Origin: an uncultured Anaerolineaceae bacterium | GTDB taxonomy: Bacteria > Chloroflexota > Limnocylindria > Limnocylindrales > CSP1-4 | Length of the DNA stretch: 45,754 nucleotides | Assembly (NCBI GenBank): GCA_964477545.1 | Contig: CAYZEJ010000003.1 | Location: 1-45,754 of the forward strand | Direction: 5' to 3' | Shown: positions 2,876 to 35,470 of the stretch, piece after piece | Layout of the letters: every line of letters starts with the position of its first letter | How positions within the stretch are numbered: the stretch's first letter is position 1 | The notes under the pieces: generated by a model | Database searches by the model: none | The model's input: the letters and a program-made list of their open reading frames with translations, nothing else | What the model was told of the DNA's origin: nothing | Program-made: the position numbers and the translations under genes

Positions 2876-3027
2876 GTCGTGGTAGCGCGAGTGTCAGCCG
2901 CGCGTAGTACTTCTGTGGTACCTCCGTCACGGTGCGCGGGGCGGGGGCGGGTGGCAGCCTTGCGCTGACATTCGCGCGAATTGGGATCGAGGTGCATCGC
3001 CTGGTCGCGCGCGACGAGCTTGAGGCT

Positions 3028-3486
3028 ATGGCGCAACTCGAATTGCTACGTCGCACCGCGAAAGCGGGCAGCCGTCGGCGACGCCGCCAGCGCACGCGCG
3101 GCCAGTCGCTGGTCGAGTTCGCGATCGTCCTGCCCGTCTTCCTGCTCATCGCCTTCGCAATATTCGACTTCGGCCTGGCGTTCGATGCCTCGATCGGCAT
3201 CAGCAACGCGGCTCGAGAGGGAGCGCGGCAGGGGGCGACACAGCCCAACGCCGCGGCGATCACGGCGCGTGTCCGGACCGTCGCCGGCAGGCTCAACGAT
3301 TCCCGACTGACCGTCACCGTCACCTGCAAGACGACAACCGGCGCGGCCTGTCCGGGCGGCATCGCGGGGGCCACGACCGGCGGATCTGTCGTCGTCCGCG
3401 TGGGCTACTCGTACTCGATGCTCACTCCGATCGCGTTTGGCACGGCGATTCCGCTCAGCTCGACGGCCGAGATGCGCGTCGAATGA
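3028..3486 (+). CDS. tadE: TadE/TadG family pseudopilin
   Basis: Class III signal 'RGQSLVEFAIVLPVFLLIAFAIFDFG' and 'SNAAREGAR'; GAGG upstream of ATG 3028. Confidence 0.88.
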   Translation: MAQLELLRRTAKAGSRRRRRQRTRGQSLVEFAIVLPVFLLIAFAIFDFGLAFDASIGISNAAREGARQGATQPNAAAITARVRTVAGRLNDSRLTVTVTCKTTTGAACPGGIAGATTGGSVVVRVGYSYSMLTPIAFGTAIPLSSTAEMRVE

Positions 3487-4811
3487 TCGCCCGGCTGCGC
3501 TCGCGCCGCTCTGAAGGGGAACGCGGCCAGGCACTGGTCCTGTTCGTCGTCGCCCTGGTCATGTTGCTGACGGTGCTTGCCCTGGTGATCAACGGTGGCA
3601 TCCTGCGTCGCTCGGACCAGGAGCTGTGGAACGCGCTCGACGCAGGGGCACTCGCCGGGGCTGCCAGCTTGCCCGCCAACGCGGCCGGTGCGAGGAGCGA
3701 TGCCGTGAAGTTCGCCCGGATCAACCATCCGGCGCTCTCGGCTGCGTCAGTCAACGTCACCTTCCGGTGTCTCGTCGGCGACCGCAACTCGGACGGCCGG
3801 CCCGACGCGGCCGACATTCCGGCCACCTGCAACCCGGGCGCCGGCGCCCGTTGGGTATGTGCCAACGGCAAGTGTGTGGCGGCGTGCGACCCGACCCGCG
3901 GCGGAGTGTGCAATACCGTCGTCCTCGGCGGAACTGTGCCCACGAACTACCGTCTGGGCGAGGTCACGGGGGTCCCCGGCGCGAGCACCACGCTGGAGTC
4001 GGCCGCGTGCAGCGGCCTCTGCGGCAGCGACCCGACGGCGCCTCTCGACATCGCCTTCATCATCGACCGCACCAGCAGCATGAGCGCTGCGGACCTCATC
4101 AACGTAAAGAACGCCACGCTTTCGACCCTGCGCATCCTCGACCCCACCAGGCAGCACGTGGCGATGGGTGTGCTGGGCCGCAGCCAGACGTCGGCGTCGT
4201 GCGGCGGCACGGGCAATCCCTTCGGCATCGCGAGCCTGGTTACCAACGTGGGCACCTGGGTGACCGTTCCCTACCCGTCGTCGCGCTCACTGAGCAATAA
4301 CTACCAGAATCGAGACGGCTCGCTCAACTCCAGAAGCCAGCTGGTGCGCACGATCAACTGTCTCAACCACTCGCAGACGATGACCAACCTGGGCGATCCG
4401 CTGCGTGCGGTCGCGAACGCGATGATCCTGCGCGGCCGGCCCGGGGTCACGAAGGGGATCATCCTGATGACCGACGGCGCGGCCAACCAGCCCAACCTGC
4501 GATCGTGCAAATACGCCAACGACAATGCGACCGCGGTCAAGCAGATGGGCATCGAGGTCTTCACCATCGGCTTCGGCGTCGTCGGCGATCGCTGCATCGA
4601 CGTCGACGGGACATATCGCAATGCCTCGGCGGCAAACCTGCTCGCCGACATGGCCACGGGACCGACTGACAACGACGGCTGCACGGACGCCGAGAACACA
4701 GACGGCGACCATTTCTTCTGCGAGCCGCGCTCCGACAGCCTCACCTCGGTGTTCCGCGCGGCGACCTCGGCGCTCGTCGCCGGGAGCGTTCGGTTGGTCG
4801 ACCTGCCCTGA
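3483..4811 (+). CDS. TadG-like pseudopilin with von Willebrand A domain
   Basis: 'ERGQALVLFVVALVMLL', 'NALDAGALAGA', MIDAS 'IIDRTSSMS', 'ILMTDG', 'IEVFTIGFG'; Cys-rich; ATGA overlap with tadE. Confidence 0.85.
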   Translation: MIARLRSRRSEGERGQALVLFVVALVMLLTVLALVINGGILRRSDQELWNALDAGALAGAASLPANAAGARSDAVKFARINHPALSAASVNVTFRCLVGDRNSDGRPDAADIPATCNPGAGARWVCANGKCVAACDPTRGGVCNTVVLGGTVPTNYRLGEVTGVPGASTTLESAACSGLCGSDPTAPLDIAFIIDRTSSMSAADLINVKNATLSTLRILDPTRQHVAMGVLGRSQTSASCGGTGNPFGIASLVTNVGTWVTVPYPSSRSLSNNYQNRDGSLNSRSQLVRTINCLNHSQTMTNLGDPLRAVANAMILRGRPGVTKGIILMTDGAANQPNLRSCKYANDNATAVKQMGIEVFTIGFGVVGDRCIDVDGTYRNASAANLLADMATGPTDNDGCTDAENTDGDHFFCEPRSDSLTSVFRAATSALVAGSVRLVDLP

Positions 4812-4865: not shown

Positions 4866-6329
4866 ATGGCCGTCGCTGTCAAGCCGCATCCGATCTTCCT
4901 GGCTGGCCGCTGGGTCGATTCGCCCGACACGCTCGAGGTGACCAACCCGGCGCGGCCCGACGAACCGGCCGGCGCGACCTATCACGCGACCGGGGAGCAG
5001 TACGAGGAGGCCGTTCAGGCCGCCGTGACCGCATTCGAGGTCACGCGCCGCCTGCCTGCGTACGAGCGCGGCGCCATCCTGCGCAGCATCAGCGCGGGGA
5101 TCCGCGAGCGGCGTGAGGAGCTGGGCCGCCTGATAACGCTCGAGTCCGGCAAGCCGATTCGCGACTCACTGGTCGAGGTGGATCGGGCGACACTGACGTT
5201 CCGCCTGGGCGCCGAGGAGGCCGAGCGCATCCACGGCGAGTTGATCCCGCTCGACATCATGCCGAGCTCCAAGGGACGAGTCGGCATCACGCGACGCTTC
5301 CCACTCGGCCCGATCGCGGCTATCAGTCCGTTCAACTTCCCGCTCAACCTGGCTGCGCACAAGCTGGCGCCCGCGATCGCGGCGGGTAACTCGATCGTGC
5401 TCAAGCCGCCTTCCAAGGACCCACTCACGATGCTCACCGTCGCGGAGATCGTCGAGAAGTCCGGCGTGCCCGAGGGCGCCGTGAGCATCCTGCCCATGAG
5501 TCGCAGCCTTGGCGACCGGATGGTCCAGGACGACCGCTTCAAGCTGCTCAGCTTCACCGGCTCACCGTCAGTTGGCTGGAGGATGAAGGAGCGAGCCGGC
5601 AAGAAGCGGGTGGTGCTCGAGCTGGGCGGCAACGCGGGCGTGATCGTCGACGCCTCGGCCGACCTTGACTGGGCCGTCAAGCGGACGCTGGTCGGGGCCT
5701 TCAGCTACGCCGGACAGGTGTGCATAAGCGTCCAGCGGATCTTCATCCACCGCTCTCTCTACGACGCATTTCTCGAGCGCCTGGTCGCGGGCGCACGCGA
5801 GCTGGTCGTCGGCGACCCTCTCGATCCCGAGACCCAGCTTGGTCCGATGGTCGACGTACAGGCGGCGCAGCGGACGGAGCGCTGGGTGCGCGAGGCCGAG
5901 GAAATGGGCGGACGAGTCCTCACCGGCGGCCGTGCCGACGGCTCGTACTTTCCGCCAACGGTGCTGGTCGACACGCCGCCTCAGGCGCAGGTGTGCAGCA
6001 ACGAGGCCTTCGCCCCACTCGTTGTTGCCTTTCCGTTCGACGATTTCGACCAGGCGATCCGAGGCGTGAACGACAGCTTCTACGGCCTTCAGACCGGTGT
6101 CTTCACAAACGATCTACAGCACTCGTGGCAGGCGTTCAACGAGCTCGAGGTCGGTGGCGTGATCGTCAATGACGTCCCCACGTACCGCATCGACCACATG
6201 CCCTATGGCGGCGTGAAGGATTCGGGCCTTGGCCGCGAAGGACTGCGTTGGTCGATCGAGGACATGACCGAGATCCGGCTGATGGTCGTCGCCGAACCGG
6301 AGGGCCCCGCTCCGGCACCAGCGAGCTAG
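4866..6329 (+). CDS. Aldehyde dehydrogenase family protein
   Basis: 'ISPFNFPLNL', 'FTGS', 'LELGGN', catalytic Cys in 'AGQVCIS', 'PYGGVKDSGLGREG'. Confidence 0.95.
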   Translation: MAVAVKPHPIFLAGRWVDSPDTLEVTNPARPDEPAGATYHATGEQYEEAVQAAVTAFEVTRRLPAYERGAILRSISAGIRERREELGRLITLESGKPIRDSLVEVDRATLTFRLGAEEAERIHGELIPLDIMPSSKGRVGITRRFPLGPIAAISPFNFPLNLAAHKLAPAIAAGNSIVLKPPSKDPLTMLTVAEIVEKSGVPEGAVSILPMSRSLGDRMVQDDRFKLLSFTGSPSVGWRMKERAGKKRVVLELGGNAGVIVDASADLDWAVKRTLVGAFSYAGQVCISVQRIFIHRSLYDAFLERLVAGARELVVGDPLDPETQLGPMVDVQAAQRTERWVREAEEMGGRVLTGGRADGSYFPPTVLVDTPPQAQVCSNEAFAPLVVAFPFDDFDQAIRGVNDSFYGLQTGVFTNDLQHSWQAFNELEVGGVIVNDVPTYRIDHMPYGGVKDSGLGREGLRWSIEDMTEIRLMVVAEPEGPAPAPAS

Positions 6330-6584
6330 CGCCGCCCGCGAATGGTCCCAGCGAATTTCAAACTCATGACAGGGGGTCATTTTGGGCTGCCTGCCCTTAC
6401 CAGGTCGACCCACCGTGGCACCGCACTTCACCAGCCCCTTGGCCAACGGTTGCCACTCATCCGACACGACGGCCGTGACGAATGTACGGGGCTCATTACC
6501 CCTCCCGGTCCATGGCCGCGTTCGAACGCGAATGGTTCGCTTCGCAGTGCACGGAAATTAATTACACAGGTAGAAGGGAAATTG

Positions 6585-7205
6585 ATGATGAAGCGAAAGA
6601 ACGGGAATCGCCGAAGGCGGCTCCTCATCGCCGGACTCTCGTCGCTCGCGATCGTCGGATTGGCGGCCGGAACGATGGTGTCCATGGCGCTGTTCACTGA
6701 CCAGGAGACAGACGACTCGACCTTCACCACGGGCACGATCATCCTCGACTCCACGAAGGTCTCGGCCCTCAACCTGACGACCAGTGCGCTGATGCCCGGC
6801 GACGCGGTGTCCAGCTCAGTGACGGTCGAGAACGACGGGACCGCGCAACTGCGCTACGCCGTCAGCCAGACGAGCACGAACGCGGACTCGAAGGACCTGC
6901 GTGACTCACTGCTGCTCGTCATCCGCACCGAGGACACCGGGGCCGGCGCCTTCGGTACCGACGGCAACTACTGCGACGACGCCAATGGCACGGTCCTGCG
7001 CGCGTCAGCCGCGATAGGCACAAGTGGAAACCTCGTCGGCGATCCGACGCAGGGTTCGCACGGCGGCGACCGCACGCTGAACGCGTCGGCGAACGAGGTG
7101 CTCTGCTTCTACGTCAGCCTGAGCATCGACGCCCCGGACACGTCGCAAGGCGCATCCACGACCACGACGTTCACGTTCTCCGCCGAGCAGACGGCGAACA
7201 ACTAG
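6585..7205 (+). CDS. TasA/CalY (camelysin)-like SipW-processed fibre subunit
   Basis: Basic N-region and hydrophobic core, then 'SMA|LFTDQET...FTTGTIIL'; 'ALMPGDAVSSSVTVENDGTAQLRY'; C-terminal 'FTFSAEQ'; adjacent to sipW. Confidence 0.85.
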   Translation: MMKRKNGNRRRRLLIAGLSSLAIVGLAAGTMVSMALFTDQETDDSTFTTGTIILDSTKVSALNLTTSALMPGDAVSSSVTVENDGTAQLRYAVSQTSTNADSKDLRDSLLLVIRTEDTGAGAFGTDGNYCDDANGTVLRASAAIGTSGNLVGDPTQGSHGGDRTLNASANEVLCFYVSLSIDAPDTSQGASTTTTFTFSAEQTANN

Positions 7206-7229
7206 GCATCGCCCCCTTCTATCAAGGTC

Positions 7230-7270
7230 GCGGCGGTCCGGTCGAAAGACCGGGCCGCCGTACTCCGTTT
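7230..7270 (+). terminator. Strong GAAA-capped hairpin between the tasA-like gene and sipW (leaky terminator or stability element)
   Basis: CGGCGGTCCGGTC-GAAA-GACCGGGCCGCCG, poor U-tract (TACTCCGTTT). Confidence 0.65.
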
Positions 7271-7282
7271 CACGAGGAAAAC

Positions 7283-7828
7283 ATGTCAGTCAAGGCGATA
7301 AAGATCGTTCGAGCCTCGTTCAAGGTGACCTGGCTTGCAGCGATCTTTGCGCTGGTTGGGCTGGTCTCGCTGCCTCATCTGCTTCCGCCGCTCCAGCGTG
7401 AGCTCTATGTCGTTCGAGGCGGCTCCATGGAGCCACAGATCCCGGTGGGTGCCGCGGTGATCGTCCGACACGTGGGCGCCGGTGATCTCCACGTTGGTGA
7501 CGTGATCACCTTCCGTGGCGTCAACGGGACGGTTATCACGCACCGCATCGTGGACGTTCCAGCCGCCGGGGGCGGCCTGCGCACCAAGGGCGACGCGAGC
7601 AGCGCCGCCGATACGTCCATGGTTGCGCCCACGGATGTCATCGGCATGGTCGAAGTAGTCATCCCAGCGGCTGGCGCCGTCCTGACCACCCTCGGTTCCA
7701 CGATCGGGATCGTTGCCACGCTCGGGCTGCTCGGTGGGCTGCTGGTCGCAGTCTGGTTCATGGACGAGCTGCTCCGCAGCGTCCAACGGCCTATTCGGCG
7801 CGGCACGGCCGCCATCAGGGCGGACTGA
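7283..7828 (+). CDS. sipW: Signal peptidase I, SipW (ER-type, Ser/His)
   Basis: 'VRGGSMEPQIPVG', 'VGDVITF', 'VITHRIV', 'RTKGDA'; N- and C-terminal TM segments; GAGGA RBS. Confidence 0.9.
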   Translation: MSVKAIKIVRASFKVTWLAAIFALVGLVSLPHLLPPLQRELYVVRGGSMEPQIPVGAAVIVRHVGAGDLHVGDVITFRGVNGTVITHRIVDVPAAGGGLRTKGDASSAADTSMVAPTDVIGMVEVVIPAAGAVLTTLGSTIGIVATLGLLGGLLVAVWFMDELLRSVQRPIRRGTAAIRAD

Positions 7829-7829
7829 G

Positions 7830-8573
7830 ATGTTGGCTCTGCGCACCGTACGGCGAGCCTCGCTCCTCGCGATCGCCGTTCTGACGGTCCTCAACGTCGG
7901 TGTGCTCGTGGCCGGCCTCATCCTGAACGGCCTGGGCGGAACCAGCGCGCTGTTCACCAGCACGCAGCCGGTCAACGCCGCGCTTGGCGCCGCGCGCATC
8001 TTCAGTGACGAGCGGGTCACGACAGGCTTTGCCGTCGGCGATCACTCGTCCGGATCCGCCGTCGATGGTTCGAGCACGACCGCGTTTGGCAGCGACGGCC
8101 GCTACTTCCTCACGCGCACGTGGCCGACTTCCTTCGCGACCGATCGATACGTCGACCTGGACTTCAACGCCCCTCTGCCGGCAGGGCTGACCGCGCAGAG
8201 CGTCGCGCTGAACATTCGTCTGGCGAGCGATGCCGGGACCGGAAGCGTCTGCATCTACGTTGAAGCGCGGCGCGCGTCGACGGGCTCTCTTCTGTCGAGC
8301 CACGGCAGCTCGGGCAGCCCGCTCGCGTGCACCAGCGGCGCGACCTACTCGACGGTCAACGTGACGTTGACCTCTGTCGACGCGACGGACTTGGCCAACG
8401 ACGTCCGGGTGCGCATCTTCGCCCGCGACAGCGCCGCCAGCGCCATCCGCCTGGACGAGGCGACGGTTGCCGGCAGCACCCCATACAGCACCTTCACGCT
8501 GTATCCGGTCCAGACGAGCGAGCTGTATAGCGGTCAGACCGAGCTCATTCGCTGGGGGCTGGCGGGCCCATGA
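7830..8573 (+). CDS. Second SipW-dependent secreted protein (minor fibre subunit/adaptor candidate)
   Basis: Signal peptide ending 'GGTSA|LFTSTQ'; beta-rich body containing 'SHGSSGSPLAC'; ATGA coupling to the downstream gene. Confidence 0.75.
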   Translation: MLALRTVRRASLLAIAVLTVLNVGVLVAGLILNGLGGTSALFTSTQPVNAALGAARIFSDERVTTGFAVGDHSSGSAVDGSSTTAFGSDGRYFLTRTWPTSFATDRYVDLDFNAPLPAGLTAQSVALNIRLASDAGTGSVCIYVEARRASTGSLLSSHGSSGSPLACTSGATYSTVNVTLTSVDATDLANDVRVRIFARDSAASAIRLDEATVAGSTPYSTFTLYPVQTSELYSGQTELIRWGLAGP

Positions 8574-11500
8574 TCAGCCGCACGTCCCGGGACCTCCAGC
8601 GTTCGATCCTGATCGCCCTGCTCGCCTGCGTCACGGTGCTCGTGCCGCTTCAGATCACGGCTACCGGTCCCCCGCCCGATGGCGCCCCAACGCCCTCCGC
8701 CGACGTTCCGTCGCCCACACCCGAGGCTTCCGGGGATGAGCCGCCGCCGACCGTCGCTCCAGACGCCGAGGCGAGTGCGTCGCCTGCGCCCGAGACCACC
8801 GCCGAACCCTCGCCCACCGGTCCAGATGCGGGCCACTCGCCGCCGCCGGCGAGCGATCCGCCCTTCGCCGAGGAAACGCCAGCTCCGACGCCCGCCGACG
8901 ACCCGGCGGGTGCCTCGCCGTCTCCGGAGCCGTCTCCGGAGCCGTCAGTGGACCCGTCGCCCGGGGCGTCGCCGACGGTATCGCCGACGGCGGCCCCGGC
9001 CGCTCCATCGATGCCGTTCGTGGTCACATTCGTATCGAGCGACGCGTTCGCGGCCCGCGCCGATCTCCTCGCGGCCGTCGGCGCGACGGAAACCTCGGCG
9101 ATCGCCTCGCTTTCGCTGGCGACGATCGACGTGCCGGTCGACGGCGCGGTCGACCTGCTGGCCGCCCTGCAGGCCAGCCCGCTCGTGTCAGGCGTGGACG
9201 TGGATCGGGAGCGACAGATCGAGGCCGCGCCGGACGACACGTACTACGACGACCAGTGGGCTCTGCCGCGCATCGGATGGACTACCGCACGTGAAAGCAT
9301 GTCGCCAACGGGCAGCGCGGTCGTCGCCATCCTGGACACGGGTATCGACGCGGCTCACCCGGACCTCGCGGGGCAGCTCGTCGACGGAACCTCGTTCGTC
9401 GACGGCACCGACGTGGGCACCGATCCGAACGGTCACGGCACGTGGATGGCGGGCATCGTCGCCGCGGCGACAAACAACGGCGTCGGAGTCGCCGGCGTCG
9501 GAATGGACTCCGTCAAGGTGATGCCCGTGACCGTCATCGGCGCCGACGGCACCGGACGTGACAGCGACATCATCGCCGGCATCGTCTACGCCACCGAGCA
9601 CGGCGCCGACGTCATCCTGATGGCGTTTTCGAGTCGTGGCTACTCGGCCGCACTCCAGCAGGCCGTCGACTACGCCTGGGAAAGCGACGTCGTCCTGGTC
9701 GCGGCGGTCGGCAATGACGGCGCGGAGCGGGCAACGTATCCGGCCGGCGACGCCGGCGTGATGGGCGTCTCGGCGACCGACTTCGACGACTCCCTCTGGA
9801 CACAGAGCAACCACGGGGATGCAGTCTTCCTCGGCGCGCCGGGGGCCGGCATCATGACTACCGCCCCAACGGGTGAATACGTCGCCATCAGCGGAACTTC
9901 AGCTGCGGCCGCCTACGTTGCCGGCTCGGCGGCGCTGGTCCGGGCCGCGGATCAGCCGGCGTTGAACGCCGTGATCGTCGGCCGCCTGGCGCGATCGGCC
10001 GCTCCCGCCGGAACGCGGCCGGAGACGGGCAACGGCCGTCTGGATCTCGCCCGCGCCCTGGCCGACGAAAGCACCGAGGGCTTGATGCCGGCCGGTGTGA
10101 CCGGCGCCGCAAGCGGCGGGCCGATCGTGGGTCCCTTCGGTGATCCTGAAGATCCGCCCATCTACACCGTCGCCGCCTGGTACAGCGGCTCCTGGGCGTA
10201 CCGCAAGACGATCACCATCGATCACACGAAGGTCGGCGCCACGCTCACGAGCTTCCCGTTCCTGGTGACCTATGCGTCCGATACCGACCTGGCCGCGGAC
10301 GCCCAGGACGACGGTGACGACATCCTGTTCACGTCGGCAGACGGGTCGACCAAGCTCGACCATGAGATCGAGACGTTCAGCGGGAGCACCGGCGCGCTCG
10401 TGGCATGGGTCGAGGTGCCCAGCCTCTCGAGCACGGTGGACACCGTTCTCTACCTGTACTACGGGAACGGCTCGGCCGCCAGCCAGCAGAACGTGACGGG
10501 CGTGTGGGACTCGAACTTCAAGGGCGTGTGGCACCTGGACGAGACCGTCACCGACGAGCAGTTGACGGGAACGCACAACGACTCGACTTCGAACGTCAAC
10601 AACATGACCCAGGGCGGCAACGTGACCGTGACCGGCAAGATCGGCTCCGCCCAGGACCTCGACGGAACCAACGACTACATCAAGCGCGCCAACGCGGCCA
10701 GCCTCCAGGTCACATCGACTTTCACGCTCTCGGGCTGGGTGCAGATGGACGCGTTCGGGGCGGGCAACGAGATCGACCCCATCCTGCGCAAAGGCGAAGG
10801 CAGCCCCAACAACTACCAGCTCGCGTTGCACGACGGTAAATCCTCGCTGTACGTCAACGGCAGCGACGACACCCCAACCGTCGGAAGCTCGACGGTCCTC
10901 TCGACCGGTACCTGGTACTACGTCGTGGCGACGCACAACAGCGCCGGAACGAGCTACGTGTACCTGAACGGCGCTCAGAGCGCATCCGGGGTCGCAGCCT
11001 ATGTTGCCGCCACCGACACCCGCGAGCTCTTCATCGGCGGACGCGACGACGCGCTGGACGTCTCGAACGGGCGGTTCGACGAGGTCCGCATCTCCAATAC
11101 CGCGCGCTCCGCCACCTGGATCTCGACCGAGTACAACAACCAGAACACGCCGTCCACGTTCTCCTCGACCGGGTCGGAGGGGACCAACGACTCGACCGCG
11201 CCGACGCTCAGCCCGACGGTCACCGAGGGCTCCAATCCAGGTCTCCAGCATTTCGCCTCGAACACCCTCTACTACAACCCCGGCGGAACGGGCACTTTCA
11301 CGGTCCAATCCGGGGCGTCTGACACGGGTGGCTCCGGCCTCGACACGGTCACCTTCCCCGGCCGCTCGACGTACCAGGAAGTCGTCGCGGATTCGGCCGC
11401 GAGCTACTGGCGGTTGGGCGAGACGAGCGGCACAAGCGCAGTCGACGCCCGGGGTGTCGTCAACGGCACGTACACCAATGGCGTCACGCTCAACCAGACG

Positions 11501-13831
11501 GGCGCCCTGTCGGGGGACGCCGACAAGGCCGCATCCTTCGACGGCGTAGACGACTACGTCAACGTCGGCGACGTGTACGACTTCGCGGGCACCGCTTCGT
11601 TCTCGGTCGAGGCGTGGTTCAAGAAGGACGTTAACGCCGCTTCCACGTACATGCGCGTTGTGGATAAGAACAACTGGAATTCTCCGCGCAACGGCTGGCA
11701 GCTGGAGATCCAGCCGGAAAGCGAGGGAGCCGACGCGAGGAAGATCGGCTTCTCGCGCTGGGCGGGTGGATCGACCAACTACGCGATGAGCACGACACTC
11801 ACCGGGACCGGCACGTGGTACCACGTCGTTGGGACCTACGACGGTACGAACCTCCGGATCTACGTCAACGGTGTCTTGGAGGCGACGACAGCGTCAAGCC
11901 TCTCGATGCCGGGTAATGCGCTCCCGTTGCGCATCGGGCAGTCTGCTGCCGGGTACGAGTTTTTCGACGGCACGATCGACGACGTCGCCATCTACAGCTC
12001 GGCGCTTGGAGCATCAGCGATCCAGGAGCACTACTGGGCGCGTTCGTCCGCCGCTATGCCGACTGGGTTCACGCACACCGCCATCGAGCGCAGCACGACG
12101 CCCTGGGATTCCAACACCTACACGTTCGATGCCACCAACACCACAGCGCCCTCCGCTCACACCATCACGGCGCTGGACGGCTCAGGTAACCAGGGGACGT
12201 CGACGATCACCTTCGTGCGTGACGTGACAGCTCCCACCGGCCACTCGGTCTCGCTCGTTGGCGGCCCCTACTACAGCAGCCTGTCCGTGCCACTAAACCT
12301 CGGGAATGGGACCGACAGCCAGTCCGGCGTGAACACCTCCAGCGGCGTCGTCCAGCGCGCGTCCGCAACGCTGACCACAGGCACGTGCGGGACGTTCGGT
12401 TCCTATTCGACCGTCACGCTCTCGGGCGGGGCGGACACGACCGTGACCACCGGCAACTGCTACCGCTATACGTACCGGGTCTCGGACAACGTCGGCAACC
12501 AGAGCGCCGCCTCGGCCGCCAGCGCCGACGCCAAGGTGGACACGACCGCTCCGAGCGCGCCAACGCTGAGCTACTCGGCGATGACGAACGTCGTCGCTTC
12601 AGGCAATGTCCTGCGCTACCTGCCCGGCAGCGCCGGCGGATTGACCGTCACTGCCTCGTCGACGGATGCACAGTCAGCTATCGCGAGCTATGGCTTCCCG
12701 ACGCTCCCCGCAGGCTGGACCGTGTCAGGCAGCGGAGCCTCACGCAGCTGGACGTACACGATCAACCCGACGGCTCCGTCCGGCAACCAGAACGTGTCGG
12801 CCAACAACAACAGCGGCCTCAGCGCAACCTCTGCCTTCACGCTGGCGCCCGACACCCGTCCCGTCGCCGTCGCCAACAGCTACAGCGTCAACGAGGACGC
12901 GACCCTCGCCCCTAACGCGGCGACCGGAGTGTTGGCAAACGACACGGACGCCGAGAGTGACACGCTAACGGCCATGCTGGTCACCAACGTCACCTACGGC
13001 TCACTCACGCTCTATGCCGATGGCTCGTTCAGCTACACACCGACGGCCAACTACAACGGAAGCGACTCGTTCACGTACAAGGCCAACGACGGCTGGTTCG
13101 ACTCTGCCTCCAACGCCACCGTCTCGATCACCGTCAACCCGGTCAACGACCCGCCCGTCGGCGTGGCCGACAGCTATTCGATGTACCAGGGCAACACGCT
13201 GGTCGTGGCCGCAGCCGGCGTACTCGCCAACGACACCGACGTCGACCTTCAGGCGCTCACGGTCCAGACGCCACGGCCGCTGAGCGGTCCGTCCAACGGG
13301 AGCCTCACGCTCAACGCCGACGGCTCATTCAGCTACACGCCTTCATCAGGGTTCAGCGGCGCGGACAGCTTCACCTACAAGGCCACTGACGGAGCGGCCG
13401 ATTCGCTGGCGGCCACGGTGACGATCACCGTCACCAGCACGGCATATATCTCGAGCTCCACCTGGACATCGAGCTTCAGCGGGACACGCTATCTGGACAT
13501 CACCTATCCGGGATACCTGCCCTCGGGTGCGACGGTCGTGGGCGCGACTTTCCGCCACTCGTACCGATCGTTTGCCGGTGGAACGACCTGCTACTACGTC
13601 GAGGCCTGGAGTGGCGGGGTGTTGATCGGCTCGCACGGCAGCAGCGGATCGCCGCTGTCGTGCAACGCGGGCACGACCTACGTCACGGACACCGTCGCGC
13701 TGCCCGAGGTGAACAGCGTTGCCCGGGCGAACTCGCTCACCCTGCGGCTCTTCGTACGGAACAGCGCAAGCGGCAAGTCGGAGCACAGCATGGCCACGCT
13801 CGGCGTCGACTACTGGCTGGGCAACCCCTGA
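8570..13831 (+). CDS. Giant secreted S8 subtilase with Pro-rich linker, DUF2341, two LamG domains, Ig-like/Big_9 (cadherin-like) repeats and a novel C-terminal domain
   Basis: Triad 'VAILDTGID', 'NGHGTWMAG', 'ISGTSAAA'; DUF2341 'WAYRKTITIDH...DDILFTSADG..KLDHEIE'; LamG 'GTWYHVVGTYDG..LRIYVNG'; Big_9 'PVAVANSYSVNED...GVLANDTD...DGSFSYTP' twice. Confidence 0.9.
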   Translation: MISRTSRDLQRSILIALLACVTVLVPLQITATGPPPDGAPTPSADVPSPTPEASGDEPPPTVAPDAEASASPAPETTAEPSPTGPDAGHSPPPASDPPFAEETPAPTPADDPAGASPSPEPSPEPSVDPSPGASPTVSPTAAPAAPSMPFVVTFVSSDAFAARADLLAAVGATETSAIASLSLATIDVPVDGAVDLLAALQASPLVSGVDVDRERQIEAAPDDTYYDDQWALPRIGWTTARESMSPTGSAVVAILDTGIDAAHPDLAGQLVDGTSFVDGTDVGTDPNGHGTWMAGIVAAATNNGVGVAGVGMDSVKVMPVTVIGADGTGRDSDIIAGIVYATEHGADVILMAFSSRGYSAALQQAVDYAWESDVVLVAAVGNDGAERATYPAGDAGVMGVSATDFDDSLWTQSNHGDAVFLGAPGAGIMTTAPTGEYVAISGTSAAAAYVAGSAALVRAADQPALNAVIVGRLARSAAPAGTRPETGNGRLDLARALADESTEGLMPAGVTGAASGGPIVGPFGDPEDPPIYTVAAWYSGSWAYRKTITIDHTKVGATLTSFPFLVTYASDTDLAADAQDDGDDILFTSADGSTKLDHEIETFSGSTGALVAWVEVPSLSSTVDTVLYLYYGNGSAASQQNVTGVWDSNFKGVWHLDETVTDEQLTGTHNDSTSNVNNMTQGGNVTVTGKIGSAQDLDGTNDYIKRANAASLQVTSTFTLSGWVQMDAFGAGNEIDPILRKGEGSPNNYQLALHDGKSSLYVNGSDDTPTVGSSTVLSTGTWYYVVATHNSAGTSYVYLNGAQSASGVAAYVAATDTRELFIGGRDDALDVSNGRFDEVRISNTARSATWISTEYNNQNTPSTFSSTGSEGTNDSTAPTLSPTVTEGSNPGLQHFASNTLYYNPGGTGTFTVQSGASDTGGSGLDTVTFPGRSTYQEVVADSAASYWRLGETSGTSAVDARGVVNGTYTNGVTLNQTGALSGDADKAASFDGVDDYVNVGDVYDFAGTASFSVEAWFKKDVNAASTYMRVVDKNNWNSPRNGWQLEIQPESEGADARKIGFSRWAGGSTNYAMSTTLTGTGTWYHVVGTYDGTNLRIYVNGVLEATTASSLSMPGNALPLRIGQSAAGYEFFDGTIDDVAIYSSALGASAIQEHYWARSSAAMPTGFTHTAIERSTTPWDSNTYTFDATNTTAPSAHTITALDGSGNQGTSTITFVRDVTAPTGHSVSLVGGPYYSSLSVPLNLGNGTDSQSGVNTSSGVVQRASATLTTGTCGTFGSYSTVTLSGGADTTVTTGNCYRYTYRVSDNVGNQSAASAASADAKVDTTAPSAPTLSYSAMTNVVASGNVLRYLPGSAGGLTVTASSTDAQSAIASYGFPTLPAGWTVSGSGASRSWTYTINPTAPSGNQNVSANNNSGLSATSAFTLAPDTRPVAVANSYSVNEDATLAPNAATGVLANDTDAESDTLTAMLVTNVTYGSLTLYADGSFSYTPTANYNGSDSFTYKANDGWFDSASNATVSITVNPVNDPPVGVADSYSMYQGNTLVVAAAGVLANDTDVDLQALTVQTPRPLSGPSNGSLTLNADGSFSYTPSSGFSGADSFTYKATDGAADSLAATVTITVTSTAYISSSTWTSSFSGTRYLDITYPGYLPSGATVVGATFRHSYRSFAGGTTCYYVEAWSGGVLIGSHGSSGSPLSCNAGTTYVTDTVALPEVNSVARANSLTLRLFVRNSASGKSEHSMATLGVDYWLGNP

Positions 13832-14163
13832 CCTGACGCTTTATCAATCTCGCGGCGGGCCGGCCACCGGTTGAGGCGACGGCCGTCACGGGATCGAACA
13901 GGAGAATCTCCATCGTCTTGCCGGCGTGGCCGCGAATTCCATAGCCCAGCCAACGACCGGCGACCGTACCTTCTGCCTACGCCCAGCCGCCCTTCACAGC
14001 CCGCTTTCACCCTCGACCCGCCCACCTGAAGACTGACGTCGACGGGTGATTCGACGCCCTGAGCGAGTCTTCGGAATGCACTGCGCGCCGGTCGTGTGAG
14101 GTCTGGTGCGGTGACAGCAGCGAGTCGTTGCCGAGCGGATAGCCCGATCGTCATGGAGGGCGA

Positions 14164-15870
14164 GTGCCCAATGGACCGCTAACGTCTGTGCGGCGGCGCT
14201 GGCATATCTGGCGCACACCAACTGGAGAGCCCGGCTTGCAAGACTCACGTACGACGTCTGCCGATCCGATTGAGCCACGCGCCGAAGTCGGGCTCCTGCG
14301 GATGCGTCTGCGCCTGGCCTTGCTGGCGGTTGGCATCGTTCCCCTAGTCGCTGCGAGCGCGCTGCTCTACGCCATCTCGCCCGGCCCGCTGCCGATCCAG
14401 TTCCTCACGCTGTTCCCGATCCTTGGTTTGGTGCTCCTGCCGATCGTCCTGTGGCTGCCGCGACAAATCCTTCGCACCACCGAGGCCCTGGACAGGTCCC
14501 GGGCCGAGATCAGTCGGCTGTACGAGGTCGCACGCGCGGACGCGTTACGGGACTCTCTTACCGGGCTTGGCAACCACCGCGCATTCCAGGAAGAGCTCGA
14601 TCGACAGCTGGAGTGGTACAGCCGCTACAAGGTACCGGTCGCGCTGCTGCTGATCGACCTCGACGATCTCAAGCTGGTCAACGACGGTGACGGGCACGCC
14701 GCTGGCGACGAGCTGCTGCGCGACTTCGGGCGCCTGATCGGCGAAACCGGCCGATACGCGGATCGTTCGTTTCGCATCGGCGGCGACGAATTCGCCGTGC
14801 TGATGCCGCACACCGATGCCGAGGGCGCCCTTCAGATCGCGACGCGCCTGCAGGATCAGGCCGCAAAGAGAACCGCCCGATCGTTCTCTTTTTCAGGCGG
14901 CATCTCGGCCTGTCCGCAGTTGGCGACCACGCGCGCCCAGTTGTATTCGCAGGCGGACGCGGCGCTCTATTGGTGCAAACGGCATGGCCGGGCATCGATC
15001 GACCTGTTCCATCCCGCCCGTGACCGGGCCGCAAGCCTCGAGGCCAGCAAGGAGCTATCGGCGGCGATCTCCCGGGTGGTGACCGACCGACTCCTGCGGC
15101 CCGTGTACCAGCCGATCGTCGACCTCGCAACGGGCCGGGTGATCGGCTTCGAAGGCCTCATCAGGCCCACCCCGGAGTCGGGCTTTGCCGACCCCGGCAG
15201 CATGTTCGTCGCGGCCGAAACCGTAGGTCGAACGGTGGAACTCGATCACGCCTGCCTCAGCGCTGTGGTCGCCGGCGCACGAAGCATGTCGGTCGACCAG
15301 TTGCTGACCGTCAACATCTCGCCGCGCACGGCGGAGGCGCCACAGTTCTCGGCCGAGTCGCTCCTCGTCGTCCTGGCGCGCTACGGGATCGACCCCGGCC
15401 GCGTCGTGGTCGAGCTCACGGAGCGCGAGAAGGTGGAGGACAGCCTCCGCCTTCAGACGAACCTCGTCGCGTTGCAGCGCGCTGGCGTGCGCATCGCGGC
15501 AGATGACGTGGGCGCGGGCAACGCAGGCCTGCGCCTGCTCAGTCAGATCCGTTTCGACATCGTCAAGATCGACCTGACCCTGGTTCAGGAGGGCGCCGAG
15601 CGCGACTCATCACGTGCGGTGCTGCGCTCGCTGCGCGATCTCGCCAATCGCTGGGGCGCGTCAGTCATCGCCGAGGGCCTGGAAACCGTGAGCCAGCTGC
15701 GCACCGTGCGCGAACTGGGTATTGCCGCAGGCCAGGGCTACCTGTTGGGCCGTCCGATGGCCGACACCTCGCTGAAGTTTGTCGACCTCGCCATCATCGA
15801 GGCCGGGGGCATGGTGCTCGATCGCCGGCCGCAACCGTCTCCCGGCGCGCTGATAGCCCCGATCGCATAG
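14164..15870 (+). CDS. Membrane-anchored GGDEF-EAL diguanylate cyclase/phosphodiesterase
   Basis: Two TM helices, 'DSLTGLGNHR', 'NDGDGHAAGD', I-site RYAD, 'RIGGDEF'; EAL domain 'VYQPIV..FEGLIR', 'ADDVGAG', 'KIDL', 'IAEGLET', 'GQGYLLGRP'. Confidence 0.93.
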   Translation: MPNGPLTSVRRRWHIWRTPTGEPGLQDSRTTSADPIEPRAEVGLLRMRLRLALLAVGIVPLVAASALLYAISPGPLPIQFLTLFPILGLVLLPIVLWLPRQILRTTEALDRSRAEISRLYEVARADALRDSLTGLGNHRAFQEELDRQLEWYSRYKVPVALLLIDLDDLKLVNDGDGHAAGDELLRDFGRLIGETGRYADRSFRIGGDEFAVLMPHTDAEGALQIATRLQDQAAKRTARSFSFSGGISACPQLATTRAQLYSQADAALYWCKRHGRASIDLFHPARDRAASLEASKELSAAISRVVTDRLLRPVYQPIVDLATGRVIGFEGLIRPTPESGFADPGSMFVAAETVGRTVELDHACLSAVVAGARSMSVDQLLTVNISPRTAEAPQFSAESLLVVLARYGIDPGRVVVELTEREKVEDSLRLQTNLVALQRAGVRIAADDVGAGNAGLRLLSQIRFDIVKIDLTLVQEGAERDSSRAVLRSLRDLANRWGASVIAEGLETVSQLRTVRELGIAAGQGYLLGRPMADTSLKFVDLAIIEAGGMVLDRRPQPSPGALIAPIA

Positions 15871-23426: not shown

Positions 23427-24350
23427 CTGACGAACCGATACCTCGTGACCGGCGGAGCCGGCTTCGTGGGCACGGGCGTGGTCCTCGCGTTGCTCGAGCG
23501 GGGCGACGAGGTTGTCGTGTTCGACTCGGGGGTCGCAGTCGGATTCGAATACCTCGCCTCTACCAGAGCGCAGATCGTCCGTGCCGACATCCGCGACACC
23601 ATCGCGCTCTCCGCTGCCCTCCAGGGCTGCACGGCAGTCGTCCATCTGGCTGCCCAGACGAGTGTGCCTGATTCCATCGCCAGGCCGATCGACGACCTCG
23701 AGATCAACGTCGCGGCCAGCCTGGGAATGCTCGAAGCCGCGAGGAGCGTTGGCGGAGTCCGCGTCGTCTTTGCATCATCCAACGCGGTCGTCGGCGGCCA
23801 CCCACCGCCAGCGCACGAGGGACTCGTGCCGTTCCCCGTCTCACCGTACGGTGCGGCCAAGGCGGCGATCGAGGCGTACCTGCGCGCCTACGGCGAAGCC
23901 TACGGGCTGGAAACCGTGGCACTCCGATTTGCCAACGCCTATGGACCATGGTCGGCGCACAAGGCGAGCGCCGTCTCGGCCTTCGTCAAGGCCTACCTGG
24001 CCGGTGGCCCGCTGACTATCCGCGGCACAGGTGCGCAGACGCGCGACTTCGTCTATCTCGACGACGTCGTCGCCGCCGTCGTGGCCTGCCTTGACGCCGA
24101 AGCGACCGTGATCGGCGGCGAAGTCTTCCAGGTCGGCACCGGGCGCGAGACCAGCATCAACGAGCTGGTGAGGCTCTTGTTCGAGGTCGGCGGAGGAGCC
24201 GTCGAGACCACTCATCTGGAACCGTCGCCGGGTGACGTGCCGCGGAACGTGAGTGACATCTCTAAGGCGCGACTTGTGCTCGGCTGCGAGCCGACGACCA
24301 CACTCGCCGAGGGCCTGACGCGCACTGTGGAGTGGTTCCGCAGCCATTGA
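23427..24350 (+). CDS. NAD-dependent epimerase/dehydratase (extended SDR); start codon uncertain
   Basis: 'YLVTGGAGFVG', 'HLAA', 'FASSNAV', 'SPYGAAK', 'RFANAYGP', 'QTRDFVY'. Confidence 0.9.
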   Translation: MTNRYLVTGGAGFVGTGVVLALLERGDEVVVFDSGVAVGFEYLASTRAQIVRADIRDTIALSAALQGCTAVVHLAAQTSVPDSIARPIDDLEINVAASLGMLEAARSVGGVRVVFASSNAVVGGHPPPAHEGLVPFPVSPYGAAKAAIEAYLRAYGEAYGLETVALRFANAYGPWSAHKASAVSAFVKAYLAGGPLTIRGTGAQTRDFVYLDDVVAAVVACLDAEATVIGGEVFQVGTGRETSINELVRLLFEVGGGAVETTHLEPSPGDVPRNVSDISKARLVLGCEPTTTLAEGLTRTVEWFRSH

Positions 24351-24409
24351 GCCTGTCGGCACCCCCGTGCCGTGGCGCACCACTATCGGTGCCACAAGTA
24401 CCAGAGCAC

Positions 24410-24425
24410 CTTGACTTTGGTACTA
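24410..24425 (+). promoter_or_regulatory. Conserved upstream element CTTGACTTTGGTACTA (operator and/or -35)
   Basis: 15/16 identical to 28508-28523, upstream of the paralogous gene. Confidence 0.55.
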
Positions 24426-24508
24426 GTCACGTAGAGGATCGATCCAGGCGGGGGACCCTTTTCGACCCGACTCCTTATGTACGGCGTTTGGGTGTCTCAG
24501 AGGTACGC

Positions 24509-27500
24509 ATGGTTCGCTTGGTCGTCGCGTTGGTCCTGGTCCTGACCGTGCTTGGCGGTGCGTTCCAGGCATTGGCCGGCCGGTCATCGAACCAGGGGCT
24601 GAGCCTGGTAGTGCCGGCGAAGGTTGACCCCGACGCCTCGTTCTCATTCGAATTCCGGTTGCCGGCGAGGGTTGCCGCCGTCGACGGCCGTGTCCTGCTC
24701 GACACGAGCGTCGCCGAGGTCGTGGGGCTCGCGCCGGTCAGTGGCGGCACCGCGCTCGCGCCGGTCCAGATTCCAGGCGGCGTCGCCTTCGGTGCGTATG
24801 GCCTCAACGCGCGTCATGGTCGGACGACCATGCGCGTCGTGGTTGCGCCCCAGGCCGAGGCGCAGCTCAAGTTTCGCGTGATCATCGATGCCATCTCCGA
24901 TGCGACCGGCAACCGCGTCGCACTACGAAAAGGCAAGGCGGTTGGGTCGCTGCGCGTCGGACGCGGTACGCACCGACCAGCCGTGCCGGGTGACGCTGCT
25001 CGCCGGTTACCCACCCGTGCGGCGGTTCCGCTGCGTCCCCCCGTCGACGACGGCACGATCGACGTCAAGGATCTCGACGTCGTCCGAGCGGAGTGGGCGA
25101 TGGCGCGCGCGAACGATGCGGCATGTGGTGACGAGCGCTATCGCGCTGCCGACGCGAACGGCGACGGCTGTGTCGATATCGCCGACATCCAGGCCGTGTT
25201 CGCCGCGATCCGGAATCGTCCCACGGCCGAGCGCAACGACGCTAACCGCACGAACGCCACCGCGTCCGTTGCCGGCGCCGGCCCGATCCTGGCCCTCGCA
25301 TCCGCCGCCGGGGAGCCTGGGCTGACTTTCATCGTCGACAGCACGGCAGATGCCCCGGACGCCAACAACGGCGATGGGTCATGCGCCGACAGCCTCGGCC
25401 GCTGTACGTTCCGAGCGGCGATCACCGAAGCCAATTGGCATACTGGTGCTGACCGCATCGAGTTCGACCTGGCAGGATCGGCGCCGGCCGCGATCCAGCT
25501 GAGCAGCAGCCTGCCGCAACTGATGATCCAGGATCGATCAGGCGGACTGGTCATCGATGGCTATAGCCAGCCGGGCAGCCGCGTCAACGACGCCACAGTC
25601 GGTTCGAATGCCATACCCGGCGTGGAGTTGCGCGGCAACGGCAATTCGCCGCGCACCAACGGCCTGTTCATGACCAGTGCGGACAACACGATCCGCGGAC
25701 TGCTGATCAACAACTTCTACCGTGGCATTTTCATCGACGGCGCAGACGCCCACGACAACTCGATCGTCGGCAACCTGTTCGGTTACACCGCGGCCGGGGC
25801 CGTTCACAGCTACAAGGCATACACGGGCGTAATCATCGACTCCGCCAACCACAACAGCGTTGGCACGCCGGCGCTGGCCGATCGCAACGTCTCCACGGCC
25901 GGTAAGGGCTTCTATCTGTACGGGCCGCCCGCGGAGCACAACGTCCTCCAGAACAACGTCATCTGCCTGACACCGACTGGGATGGCTGGCGCAACGTGCA
26001 GCACCGGCATCGATCACGACTTCGGCGCGAAGAACAACCTCATCGGCGGAACGGGGCTCGGGGAACGCAACGTGATCGGCCCTTCGTTCCTGCAGGGCAT
26101 CGAGATCTCGCATGGCTGGGATCCAAGCGGAAACGATACGAGCGGCCGGTGGCTGCTCAGCAACAACCGCATCGTTGGTAACTGGGTCGGCTTTCGCGGC
26201 GATGGCAGCTACAGCGCCGCGTTCCGGTCCGGCCAGAGCAATCCCGGCAGCGGCGACAACGGCAACGGCATCAACGTCTACGACGGCTCGAGCTTCAACC
26301 TGGTCGAGAGCAACTGGGTTGCCTCGGTCTACGACGGGATCCAGACCATGTCGTCCAACTCGACCGGCAACATCATCCGCAACAACATCATCGGCGAGTC
26401 GCCGCTTGGCCAGCCGGCCCCGCTCATTCGAGACGGAATCGTTGCCCGCCTGAATACCCGCACGCATACCATCGAAGGCAACATCGTCCGCAACGCCGGC
26501 CGGTACGGAATCGGGCTGACCCAGCCAGACGTCCTGTGGGTGCGGATCAGCCGCAACATCGTCACCGACATGTCGGGCCCGGCGATCTTCCTCGCTCCAA
26601 ACCCGAACGATCCTTCGGAGGGCGCGAACGACGTGCTCGCGTCACCGGTGATCACATCGGCCACGACCATCGAGGTCACCGGAACGGGCATCGCCGGCGC
26701 AACGGTGGAGGTCTACCGCGCTTCGCGACCCGCCGGGCAGAGCGGCCTGCCGGTCGAGTATCTCGGTTCGGCCATGGTGGCCGGCGATGGCACATGGACC
26801 CTGCCGGCGATTCTCCAGGCCGGCGATCGCGCGACGGCCCTGCAGATCGACCCGAGCAACAACACTTCGATGTTGGGGCTCAACGTGACCGCTGTCTTCG
26901 AGCAGCCGCCCGCGGCGCCGGTGGCTGACTTCTCGTGGACGCAGCTCGCGGGCAGCACGGCTATCGGTTTCACTGACACCTCCACCGGATCGCCTGCGTC
27001 ATGGAACTGGGAGTTCGGCGACGGCAGCACGTCCACCGAGCAGAACCCCAATCACACCTACGGCGCGACCGGCGACTTCAGCGTCAAGCTGACCGCCTCG
27101 AGTGCCGGCGGATCGAGCAGCATCACCAAGACGGTCACCGTCAGCCCGCCCTCGCAGGGCTTCTTCGCGGCCGACGCCTTCGCGCGCAGTGCGAGCAGCG
27201 GCTGGGGCACGGCCGACATCGGCGGGCCGTACACGGTCGAGGGCACGGCAGCCAACTACAGCGTCGATGGCACCGCCGGCAACATCGTGGTGCCTGGGCC
27301 GGGGCGGACCCGCTCGGCATTGCTCAACGAGGTCTCGCAGGCGAACATCGACATCCGCTTCCGGGTGGCGGCCGACAAGGTCGCGACCGGCAGCCGCTAC
27401 TTCGCCTACGCCGTCGCGCGCCGCAACTCGAACAACGAGTACCGGCCGCAGCTGATCTTCAACACCAACGGGACCTTCTCGGTCCACGCCGGCGCGCTGG

Positions 27501-28444: not shown

Positions 28445-28507
28445 GCGCGGGCTGCCGCGCCGCCGTGCGCGCGGGCAACGGATTCGGGCGCTGGCCCAGT
28501 CCGGCGC

Positions 28508-28523
28508 CTTGACTTTAGTACTA
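28508..28523 (+). promoter_or_regulatory. Conserved upstream element CTTGACTTTAGTACTA
   Basis: Matches 24410-24425; contains the TAGTACTA palindrome. Confidence 0.55.
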
Positions 28524-28611
28524 CTCGACCCGACGATCGGGGGAGGGGGATCCCACCTTTGAACGACCCCTGGCAAGAGTTCAGGCACCGCTTGCACCAG
28601 AGAGGTCCGCA

Positions 28612-35372: not shown

Positions 35373-35470
35373 CGCAGGACGCTTCTGGGTCGTCTGGAGA
35401 CGCGTTCCTCAGGTGCTGACGCCCGACCGTCCTCACGCCTTCCCGCGGAGAGGAGAAGGCGGTCGATATC

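Follow-up and report, generated by a model that had tools for sequence, protein, structure and literature searches.

A TasA/SipW-type operon of a Limnocylindrales bacterium with a giant subtilase predicted to dock on a small accessory protein through a split pair of domains

A 45,754-nucleotide stretch of DNA from an uncultured Anaerolineaceae bacterium (GTDB order Limnocylindrales, CSP1-4; assembly GCA_964477545.1, contig CAYZEJ010000003.1, positions 1 to 45,754 of the forward strand), referred to here as the window, carries four genes on the same strand at positions 6585-13831. These code for a TasA/camelysin-like protein (P0001), a SipW-type signal peptidase (P0003), a small protein (P0002) and a giant Peptidase S8 protein (P0004). 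The operon would comprise a TasA-type fibre system together with a two-piece accessory unit, formed by P0002 and the C-terminal domain of the giant. On the basis of complex prediction, the giant probably docks on P0002 through this domain, termed B; the evidence is computational throughout. A link between P0002 and the TasA-like fibre, argued by analogy with known systems, is evenly balanced between holding and failing, and the complete chain, from docking through to fibre attachment, has about an even chance of being correct. The four genes are as follows.

6585..7205, + strand: P0001, candidate TasA/camelysin-like major subunit of 206 amino acids (aa), with a SipW-type signal (..GTMVSMALFTDQ..)
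7283..7828, + strand: P0003, SipW-type (archaeal-type) signal peptidase I, 181 aa (TIGR02228)
7830..8573, + strand: P0002, 247 aa, without a Pfam or NCBIfam family
8570..13831, + strand: P0004, S8 subtilase giant of 1753 aa, with LamG and cadherin-like domains

The ATG of P0002 is located one base past the sipW stop codon, and the start of P0004 and the stop of P0002 share 4 nucleotides; the P0002 and P0004 genes are translationally coupled. In a scan of positions 6200-14300, promoter-like sites were absent from both strands and terminator-like sites from the operon (+) strand, while the two terminator-like sites on the - strand are within chance expectation (shuffle mean 3.4).

A shared domain and its predicted docking in trans

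The regions of P0002, and the domain of P0004 that it is predicted to bind, can be distinguished as follows.

7830..7949, + strand: P0002 residues 1-40, hydrophobic helix ending in GLGGTSA, putative SipW signal (AlphaFold2, AF2, helix at residues 3-32; conserved motif)
7950..7991, + strand: P0002 residues 41-54 (LFTSTQPVNAALGA), free N-terminal peptide and candidate TasA-type donor strand, outside the predicted interface
7992..8054, + strand: P0002 residues 55-75 (RIFSDERVTTGFAVGDHSSGS), beta-strand predicted to complete the C-terminal domain of the giant in trans
8097..8570, + strand: P0002 residues 90-247, A-type jelly roll with a conserved C-terminal tail (FTLYP...WGLAGP; AF2 predicted local distance difference test, pLDDT, about 85-94)
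13439..13828, + strand: P0004 residues 1624-1753, B-type jelly roll, predicted docking site of P0002 (homology; complex prediction)

An earlier note on this DNA had described a tasA/calY-like gene, sipW, P0002 and a 1753-aa subtilase as co-oriented, with the last three coupled, and had read the body of P0002 as a homologue of the subtilase C-terminus in which a Cys pair is conserved. The coordinates and family matches agree with this layout, and the homology is borne out by BLASTP, with 42 % identity (E 4e-18) between P0002 residues 106-213 and P0004 residues 1640-1744. The Cys pair is likewise invariant, both in 35 small-protein relatives of P0002 (C141/C167) and in 22 aligned sequences of the domain (C51/C75). 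When the window's genome (2.64 Mb, 69.9 % complete) was searched, the shared domain was found in just the P0002 and P0004 genes, the second at E 1.7e-19. The best match of the shared-domain profile among PDB sequences has an E value of 1.1. Profile-profile comparison with the TasA-like family gave a probability of 0.4 %, so that on sequence grounds the domain cannot simply be regarded as a paralogue of TasA.

The shared domain is a rare, unannotated family, with 325 of 1.84 billion cluster representatives matched by its profile (E<=0.001). Using hidden Markov models of the two subtypes, A and B, the 149 best-scoring representatives could be classed as 111 proteins with A followed by B, one ABB protein, 33 B-only proteins and four A-only small proteins. 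As ranking by score favours two-copy proteins, these proportions cannot be carried over to the family at large. The orders BA, AA and BB were not encountered among these 149. In the B-only proteins the domain is found at the extreme C-terminus in all cases (33/33), in twenty of them behind more than 330 aa. The A-B tandems begin with a SipW-like motif (..AAFS..), followed by about 12 variable residues and the conserved KRIFPG..R...AW...DAS.G. A profile of this N-terminal strand matches 86/111 of the A-B, 4/4 of the A-only and 0/33 of the B-only proteins among the same 149, with twelve of the 25 missed A-B proteins being N-terminally truncated; by these profile matches the N-terminal strand travels with the A subtype. 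The NCBIfam model matched by the most A-B relatives is TIGR04088, yet just 6 of 50 match it (best E 4.5e-4). Four A-B proteins (P0086, P0097, P0099 and P0146) have one or two extra C-terminal domains, which are DNRLRE-like by eye, and one small-protein relative matches the DNRLRE model NF033679 (E 0.011). Most relatives would thus be single secreted proteins of about 370 aa, consisting of a SipW-like signal, a free peptide, a long beta-strand and A followed by B. In the split lineage of the window, P0002 would retain the signal, free peptide, strand and A, with B standing alone at the C-terminus of a variable S8 protease/adhesin.

The AF2 model of P0002, built with 35 relatives, incorporates a helix (residues 3-32), a disordered stretch (34-90; pLDDT 31-43) and a confident beta-sandwich (90-243). 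Its structural neighbours are jelly rolls of the type found in carbohydrate-binding modules (CBMs), including 4mgq (Z 9.1, root-mean-square deviation 4.2, 141 residues aligned) and others at Z 7-8, a resemblance which, as far as the model goes, is a generic fold match. Foldseek, which the earlier note had named as a check, returned no match with the P0002 model at E<=0.001. The model of the fused A-B relative P0087 (50 relatives; pLDDT 91.2, predicted template-modelling score, pTM, 0.82) includes an ordered 15-residue N-terminal strand (54-68, pLDDT 93-96), while the equivalent P0002 strand is disordered when modelled alone. In a structural search other than Foldseek, CBMs of 130-160 residues align across a range of about 57-375 of the P0087 model with just 110-150 residues aligned, and the N-terminal strand and B are therefore read as one jelly roll. 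This suggests that in the fused relative the strand is part of the beta-sandwich of B, with A and its tail (86-237) forming the other jelly roll. The B domain of the giant thus appears, in the models, to depend on a strand which the fused relatives supply from their N-terminus.

For the split pair, the complex of P0002 residues 41-247 with the last 130 aa of the giant was predicted with a separate alignment for each partner. The interface score (ipSAE) was 0.83, 0.79 and 0.15 in three runs (median 0.79), against 0.01 for the best of three controls. The mark used for this score is reached by 58/80 solved complexes and 2/110 mismatched pairs, counts which hold just roughly when own alignments are used. 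The runs share at least 43 % of their contacts, with a partner pLDDT of at least 84. On P0002 the confident interface comprises residues 55-75, 78, 80, 113, 115-117, 120, 217, 219-220, 222-223, 225 and 240-247, and on the B domain of the giant residues 1-3, 5-9, 14, 16-31, 37, 39, 41, 106, 113-114 and 116-129. The contacts with the lowest error are those of P0002 residues 61-64 with partner residues 120-125 (last strand) and of P0002 residues 67-72 with partner residues 17-22 (first strand). After export, strand 55-75 of P0002 would accordingly pair with the edge strands of B, and A would pack on B. Considering that the domain has no solved relative, the model is unlikely to recall a known complex, and the existence of A-then-B fusion proteins lends support to the docking of the split halves.

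The earlier note had proposed that the giant docks through the shared domain, and that the LFTSTQ... segment of P0002 serves as a donor-like strand. Docking between the adaptor and the C-terminal domain of the subtilase is retained, given the complex scores and the A-B fusions. However, the main predicted contact is not a pairing of like domain with like domain, but is made by strand 55-75, and the LFTSTQ... segment (residues 41-54) is outside the predicted interface with the giant and remains free.

An alternative in which A and B, as modules of the carbohydrate-binding type, share one polymer as their ligand, so that P0002 and the giant co-localise without touching, can draw on the closest structural neighbours, which are CBM families (4mgq at Z 9.1; CBM4, CBM22 and CBM15 at Z 7-10), and on a Foldseek match to tandem CBM22 (E 8e-6, template-modelling score about 0.2). 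Values of Z 7-10 are, however, typical of unrelated jelly rolls, and the A/B domain has no Pfam or PDB sequence match. Co-localisation on a glycan is furthermore at odds with the fixed A-then-B order, with B-only domains that are always C-terminal and never accompanied by the strand motif, and with the complex score of 0.79 against 0.01 for the controls. The family is also rare and does not occur on glycoside hydrolases among the family proteins inspected, and this alternative is considered very unlikely.

Similarly, P0002 may act as a chaperone-like intermediate, its strand shielding the incomplete B domain for a time before the TasA-like arm displaces it by donor-strand exchange. In that case it would be the giant itself that caps the fibre, with P0002 in the role of a chaperone or a TapA-like primer. 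The arms of the two proteins are laid out alike, with ALFT, about 9 residues and FTTGTI.L in the TasA-like protein and ALFT, about 9 residues and AGRIF in P0002, and TapA is described as a chaperone acting via strand complementation (PMC10151520). In the fused relatives, however, the strand is held permanently in cis with B and A is packed on B (pTM 0.82), which argues for a stable rather than a transient arrangement. Such a hand-over is highly improbable.

Organisation of related loci

The relatives of P0002 number 81, range from 221 to 378 aa (most being 240-255 aa) and are all unnamed or annotated as 'hypothetical'. The small protein or the domain is found in 16/61 related genomes, and in thirteen of these sixteen a second copy of the domain, 5-13 kb off on the same contig and strand, ends a reading frame of 193-3622 aa. 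Eleven further loci were compared with the four window proteins, and 15 loci were examined in all. The order tasA-like gene, sipW, small protein and S8 giant ending in B is observed in the window and ten other split-type loci. The tasA-like gene and sipW are located directly upstream in 14/15 loci and on another contig in the fifteenth genome, as expected from the linkage to sipW/tasA that the earlier note had anticipated. Coupled with the low number of clusters (325 among 1.84 billion), this linkage is inconsistent with a common stand-alone CBM without ties to sipW, which the note had weighed against its own proposal. In all thirteen split loci the small gene has an S8 giant as its immediate downstream neighbour, which is the case in neither of the two fused loci, as far as their available flanks extend.

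The giants, which range from 1,136 to 3,606 aa in total, have a constant S8 head and C-terminal domain, while their middle parts vary greatly between species, with LamG in some and autotransporter-like beta-helix repeats in others. A last cadherin-like domain is matched just upstream of the C-terminal domain in 9/10 other giant loci, the exception being L040. Split pairs are also present in two further genera of the same family (genomes G782 and G630), and in the compared loci the split of the A-B module between two coupled genes is shown to be conserved across four genera. G782 encodes a second, divergent tasA-like protein (29 % identity to P0001) between sipW and the small protein (L067, G782:C2, 5934-6485), and a further tasA-sipW pair occurs on its contig C3. 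A giant gene split into overlapping open reading frames (ORFs) in different frames was seen in L033 (G002:C1), L032, L034, L035, L036, L066 and L067, which derive from single- or few-contig assemblies, and in G002 the small gene is split in this way as well.

In a locus of another genus (L041), the tasA-like gene and sipW are followed by a gene whose 377-aa product joins the small protein and a further copy of the domain in one chain. The metagenome-assembled genome (MAG) of an Acidimicrobiia member encodes P0110, a 702-aa ORF in which a SipW domain is followed by the ALFT motif, an FN3-like stretch and A-B, with a tasA-like gene just upstream. A search for related loci with P0110 yielded one relevant locus (L054), the other nine being SipW-only matches. 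The ESM Atlas clusters nearest to the fused family carry the label Actinomycetota and consist of unnamed proteins 376 and 390 aa long. The split pair resembles the fused A-B proteins (about 370 aa) in its N-terminal strand, its A and B subtypes and their order, and its SipW-like signal, and tasA-sipW neighbours occur in both fused loci seen (L041 and L054). It differs in that the fused proteins are one chain, and that an S8 giant adjoins the split loci only, within the flanks available for the two fused ones.

Strong orthologues of the TasA-like protein (E<=1e-50) are encoded in 15/60 genomes, one unpublished genome being left out, and fourteen of these fifteen also encode the small protein; in the fifteenth (G033) the contig breaks off within sipW. 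Beyond these genomes, the domain was found in 1/401 genomes sampled from the window's phylum (the window's own), in 5/401 sampled from its class (all of one family) and in 1/301 sampled from the class of the Acidimicrobiia MAG (the MAG itself). As 9-12 first-look candidates were scored per genome, the remaining genomes are those in which the domain was not found by this search.

The giant, its tether and the putative link to the fibre

Upstream of its B domain, P0004 incorporates the following regions.

8570..9316, + strand: P0004 residues 1-249, signal/transmembrane segment, Pro-rich linker of about 115 aa and propeptide-like segment (sequence; layout kept in 10 orthologues)
9317..9991, + strand: Peptidase S8 (subtilase) domain (PF00082, 126.7 bits, cut-off 21.8)
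10310..12025, + strand: DUF2341 (residues 581-647) and two Laminin_G_3 domains (698-852 and 991-1152) (Pfam)
12857..13429, + strand: two Big_9/cadherin-like domains, residues about 1430-1620 (Pfam)

On the basis of its Pfam score and its catalytic motifs, P0004 belongs to Peptidase S8, the DTG (D256), HGT (H289), GNDG (N382) and GTS (S443) motifs being kept in 10/10 orthologues. Residues 1-240 have no Pfam match, and the propeptide-like segment is putatively the S8 propeptide. About 270 aa between the Laminin_G_3 and the Big_9/cadherin-like domains are also without a Pfam match. Neither the mycosin model of the type VII secretion system (TIGR03921; 166.6 bits, cut-off 278.75) nor the model of the TafC fimbrial protein (NF052521; 80.8 bits, cut-off 410) is reached. 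The giant is thus not a TafC member, only its LamG region (939-1155) matching that model. The protein ends directly after the B domain, and at its C-terminus no transmembrane segment or LPXTG motif is seen in the sequence and no SLH domain by Pfam, as the earlier note had also observed. In the proposed arrangement the giant, with no other visible C-terminal anchor, would be held non-covalently by P0002. In other subtilases the S8 propeptide is removed. If this is also the case here, the mature giant loses its N-terminal anchor, leaving the docking as its sole tether.

P0001 is a candidate TasA-type fibre subunit, as suggested by its matches to Pfam family PF12389 (Peptidase_M73; 31.6 bits, cut-off 22.5), which cover only residues 24-100, and to TIGR04088 (cognate_SipW; 28.8 bits, cut-off 19). 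In sequence it resembles the TasA fibre chain 8aur just weakly (E 0.012), and it is excluded from the TasA equivalog NF046066 (25 bits, cut-off 450). P0003 scores 78.4 bits against TIGR02228 (cut-off 51.85) and is the sole match above that cut-off in the window's genome, while its score of 68.9 falls below the cut-off of 190 of the Bacillus SipW equivalog NF046067. Several congeners encode tandem SipW-like peptidase paralogues, two or three per cluster and away from the fibre operon (G006:C3:511025-514538, G016:C10:713644-718188, G013:C2:214401-216548 and G022:C95:882-2880), in what looks like a different SipW-based system.

A G(L)PGT.ALFT motif is kept in 35 P0002 relatives, with A40 invariant, and matches the motif of the TasA-like proteins in the same operons, of which orthologues from 12 loci were aligned. 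Profile alignment (hhalign) of the P0002 and TasA-like N-termini spans 26 columns with a probability of 48 %. From the common motif and this 26-column match we infer that SipW cuts P0002 before L41. Residues 41-54 of P0002 align where TasA has its donor strand 28-38 (PMC9674648), and by analogy may act like this strand. Once freed by SipW, the 41-54 peptide would insert into a TasA-like subunit, as the N-terminus of TapA does, and the protease/adhesin would end up at one end of the fibre.

Alternatively, P0002 may be a dock at the cytoplasmic membrane, its helix being an uncleaved signal-anchor and the same strand complementation holding the C-terminus of the giant at the membrane. The S8/LamG end would project outward once the propeptide is gone, and the TasA-like fibre would be a separate product of the operon. 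The evidence for P0002-B docking fits this alternative equally well, and the lack of a TIGR04088 match for P0002, the AF2 helix at residues 3-32 and the pair of G630, which stands beside sigma/anti-sigma-like ORFs and not beside tasA-sipW, are all in its favour. However, the small-protein family keeps the same G(L)PGT.ALFT motif as the TasA-like proteins of its operons, a single base separates sipW and P0002, one MAG has a SipW domain that is fused to, or reads through into, an A-B protein, and G630 does have tasA-sipW on another contig. A membrane dock is considered unlikely.

Several observations nevertheless weigh against a fibre-linked adaptor that holds the giant in trans. With respect to the fibre link, the likeness between the P0002 and TasA-like N-termini is weak and partly consists of the signal motif itself. 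TIGR04088, the curated SipW-signal model, gives no P0002 match even at E<=1 and matches one of the 35 small-protein relatives (E 0.071), and the label of SipW substrate which the earlier note had attached to P0002 is not confirmed. In G630 the small-giant pair does not adjoin tasA-sipW, which is located on another contig, but adjoins the sigma/anti-sigma-like ORFs, named from sequence only. With respect to docking, one of the three complex runs reached just 0.15, the calibration of the score is a rough one, and the placement of the strand in the sandwich of B rests on alignment ranges and a contact list, not on inspected coordinates. The modelled fold, furthermore, resembles CBMs (Z 7-10), and glycan binding by A and B is possible. 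Finally, in 6/13 split loci the giant's coding sequence is interrupted, giving two or more overlapping ORFs, which could reflect indel or assembly errors or real gene decay.

The host lineage is probably monoderm, as no Omp85 was found in three congeners; WhiB was likewise not found in these three or in the window's genome, at its 69.9 % completeness, for which reason the organism is not taken for an actinobacterium. A broader version of the fibre-linked reading is a plug-in display, in which any large passenger ending in B is clipped onto a fibre adaptor by beta-strand complementation in trans. The passengers would here be species-variable S8 proteases of 1,100-3,600 aa with LamG, beta-helix or cadherin stalks, resulting in an enzyme-bearing biofilm fibre in a monoderm. 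This generalisation is tentative and falls somewhat short of an even chance. Fibres of the TasA type are known as structural scaffolds, with small minor subunits that prime their assembly. If the display reading is true, such fibres, or at least their accessory proteins, can bear very large enzymes and adhesins, and a protease can be kept at the surface by cells that have neither an outer membrane nor LPXTG sorting nor SLH domains. A jelly-roll domain would be shared by two genes and completed in trans, widening donor-strand complementation from fibre building to cargo, and an unannotated protein family would gain a function and possibly serve as a protein-display tool. The docking pair, of about 21 kDa and 14 kDa, is directly testable.

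Comparison with described systems and neighbouring genes

Chaperone-usher pili (FimH-FimG-FimF-FimA) carry a tip head with an incomplete pilin-like domain, which is completed by a strand of the next subunit, and have an adaptor between tip and rod. The arrangement proposed here likewise includes a tip with an incomplete domain and an adaptor between tip and rod. It differs in that no chaperone or usher is present, the host is seemingly monoderm, the families are unrelated, the incomplete domain is a jelly roll and not Ig-like, and the tip is an enzyme of more than 1,700 aa.

As in Bacillus subtilis with its tapA-sipW-tasA operon, a subunit of the TasA/camelysin family and a dedicated peptidase of the SipW type are encoded in one operon, although the gene order differs. 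P0002 is comparable to TapA in being a second secreted protein free of low-complexity sequence, with an N-terminus that resembles the donor arm of the major subunit and a beta-sandwich body. However, P0002 represents one half of a split two-domain module, and an S8 protease/adhesin of 1,100-3,600 aa is translationally coupled to it. P0002 matches no NCBIfam or Pfam family, and hence no TapA-like model, and TapA chains are not among the structural matches listed for the P0002 model; a relationship to TapA is still possible. The first donor strand in TasA fibres has been proposed to come from TapA, which provides a precedent for a donor-strand minor subunit (PMC9674648; PMC10151520), and the account of TapA/AbpB in PMC9245690 includes the idea of such a subunit with distal adhesin domains. 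The literature searched did not link a subtilisin-like protease to SipW, this search being one that did not extend to supplementary lists of TasA-like proteins (e.g. PMC9245690 Supplementary Data 1), which might include the lineage.

By analogy, the proposed logic is closest to the model of the haloarchaeal tafi system, with the TapA/AbpB type of donor-strand minor subunit also being close. The model consists of a LamG tip (TafC), an adaptor (TafE), a core (TafA) and a signal peptidase (TafD) (PMC11821415). Tip adhesin, adaptor, major subunit and dedicated signal peptidase I would thus have counterparts here, and the tafi model also has a LamG-type domain on an accessory protein and links modelled as donor strands (PMC11821415). 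TafC, however, is described there as a 37.8 kDa protein with its own N-terminal donor strand, and tafi as archaeal and Tat-exported (Tat, twin-arginine translocation; PMC11821415), while the system of the window is bacterial and its LamG domains are part of a giant protease without a donor strand of its own. This giant is instead predicted to be attached through its C-terminal domain by the strand of the adaptor. As far as the models indicate, the two-protein accessory unit, the giant subtilase/adhesin cargo and its C-terminal attachment by the strand of an adaptor are what would distinguish the system from those described.

Directly 3' of the giant gene, a GGDEF-EAL protein is encoded at 14164-15870 (+) (GGDEF 114 bits, EAL 165 bits), and a GGDEF-like ORF likewise follows the cluster in L032; this neighbour may provide a cyclic di-GMP link to the fibre operon. 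Further downstream (24332-37642, +), large proteins that look secreted and have right-handed beta-helix and PKD domains (1370, 1098 and 723 aa) are encoded in a row, together with a 1009-aa ORF without a Pfam match. The A/B domain is absent from these proteins by the search of the window's genome, while P0093, a member of the A-B family elsewhere, has a beta-helix and PKD front end like theirs. Upstream of the operon are pseudopilin-type genes, which include a TadE-like gene (2932-3486, +) and a TadG-like/VWA gene (3483-4811, +), with an aldehyde dehydrogenase gene located between these and the fibre operon. As VWA and dehydrogenase genes are also found upstream in L032, a second surface-filament system would appear to be encoded near the fibre operon.

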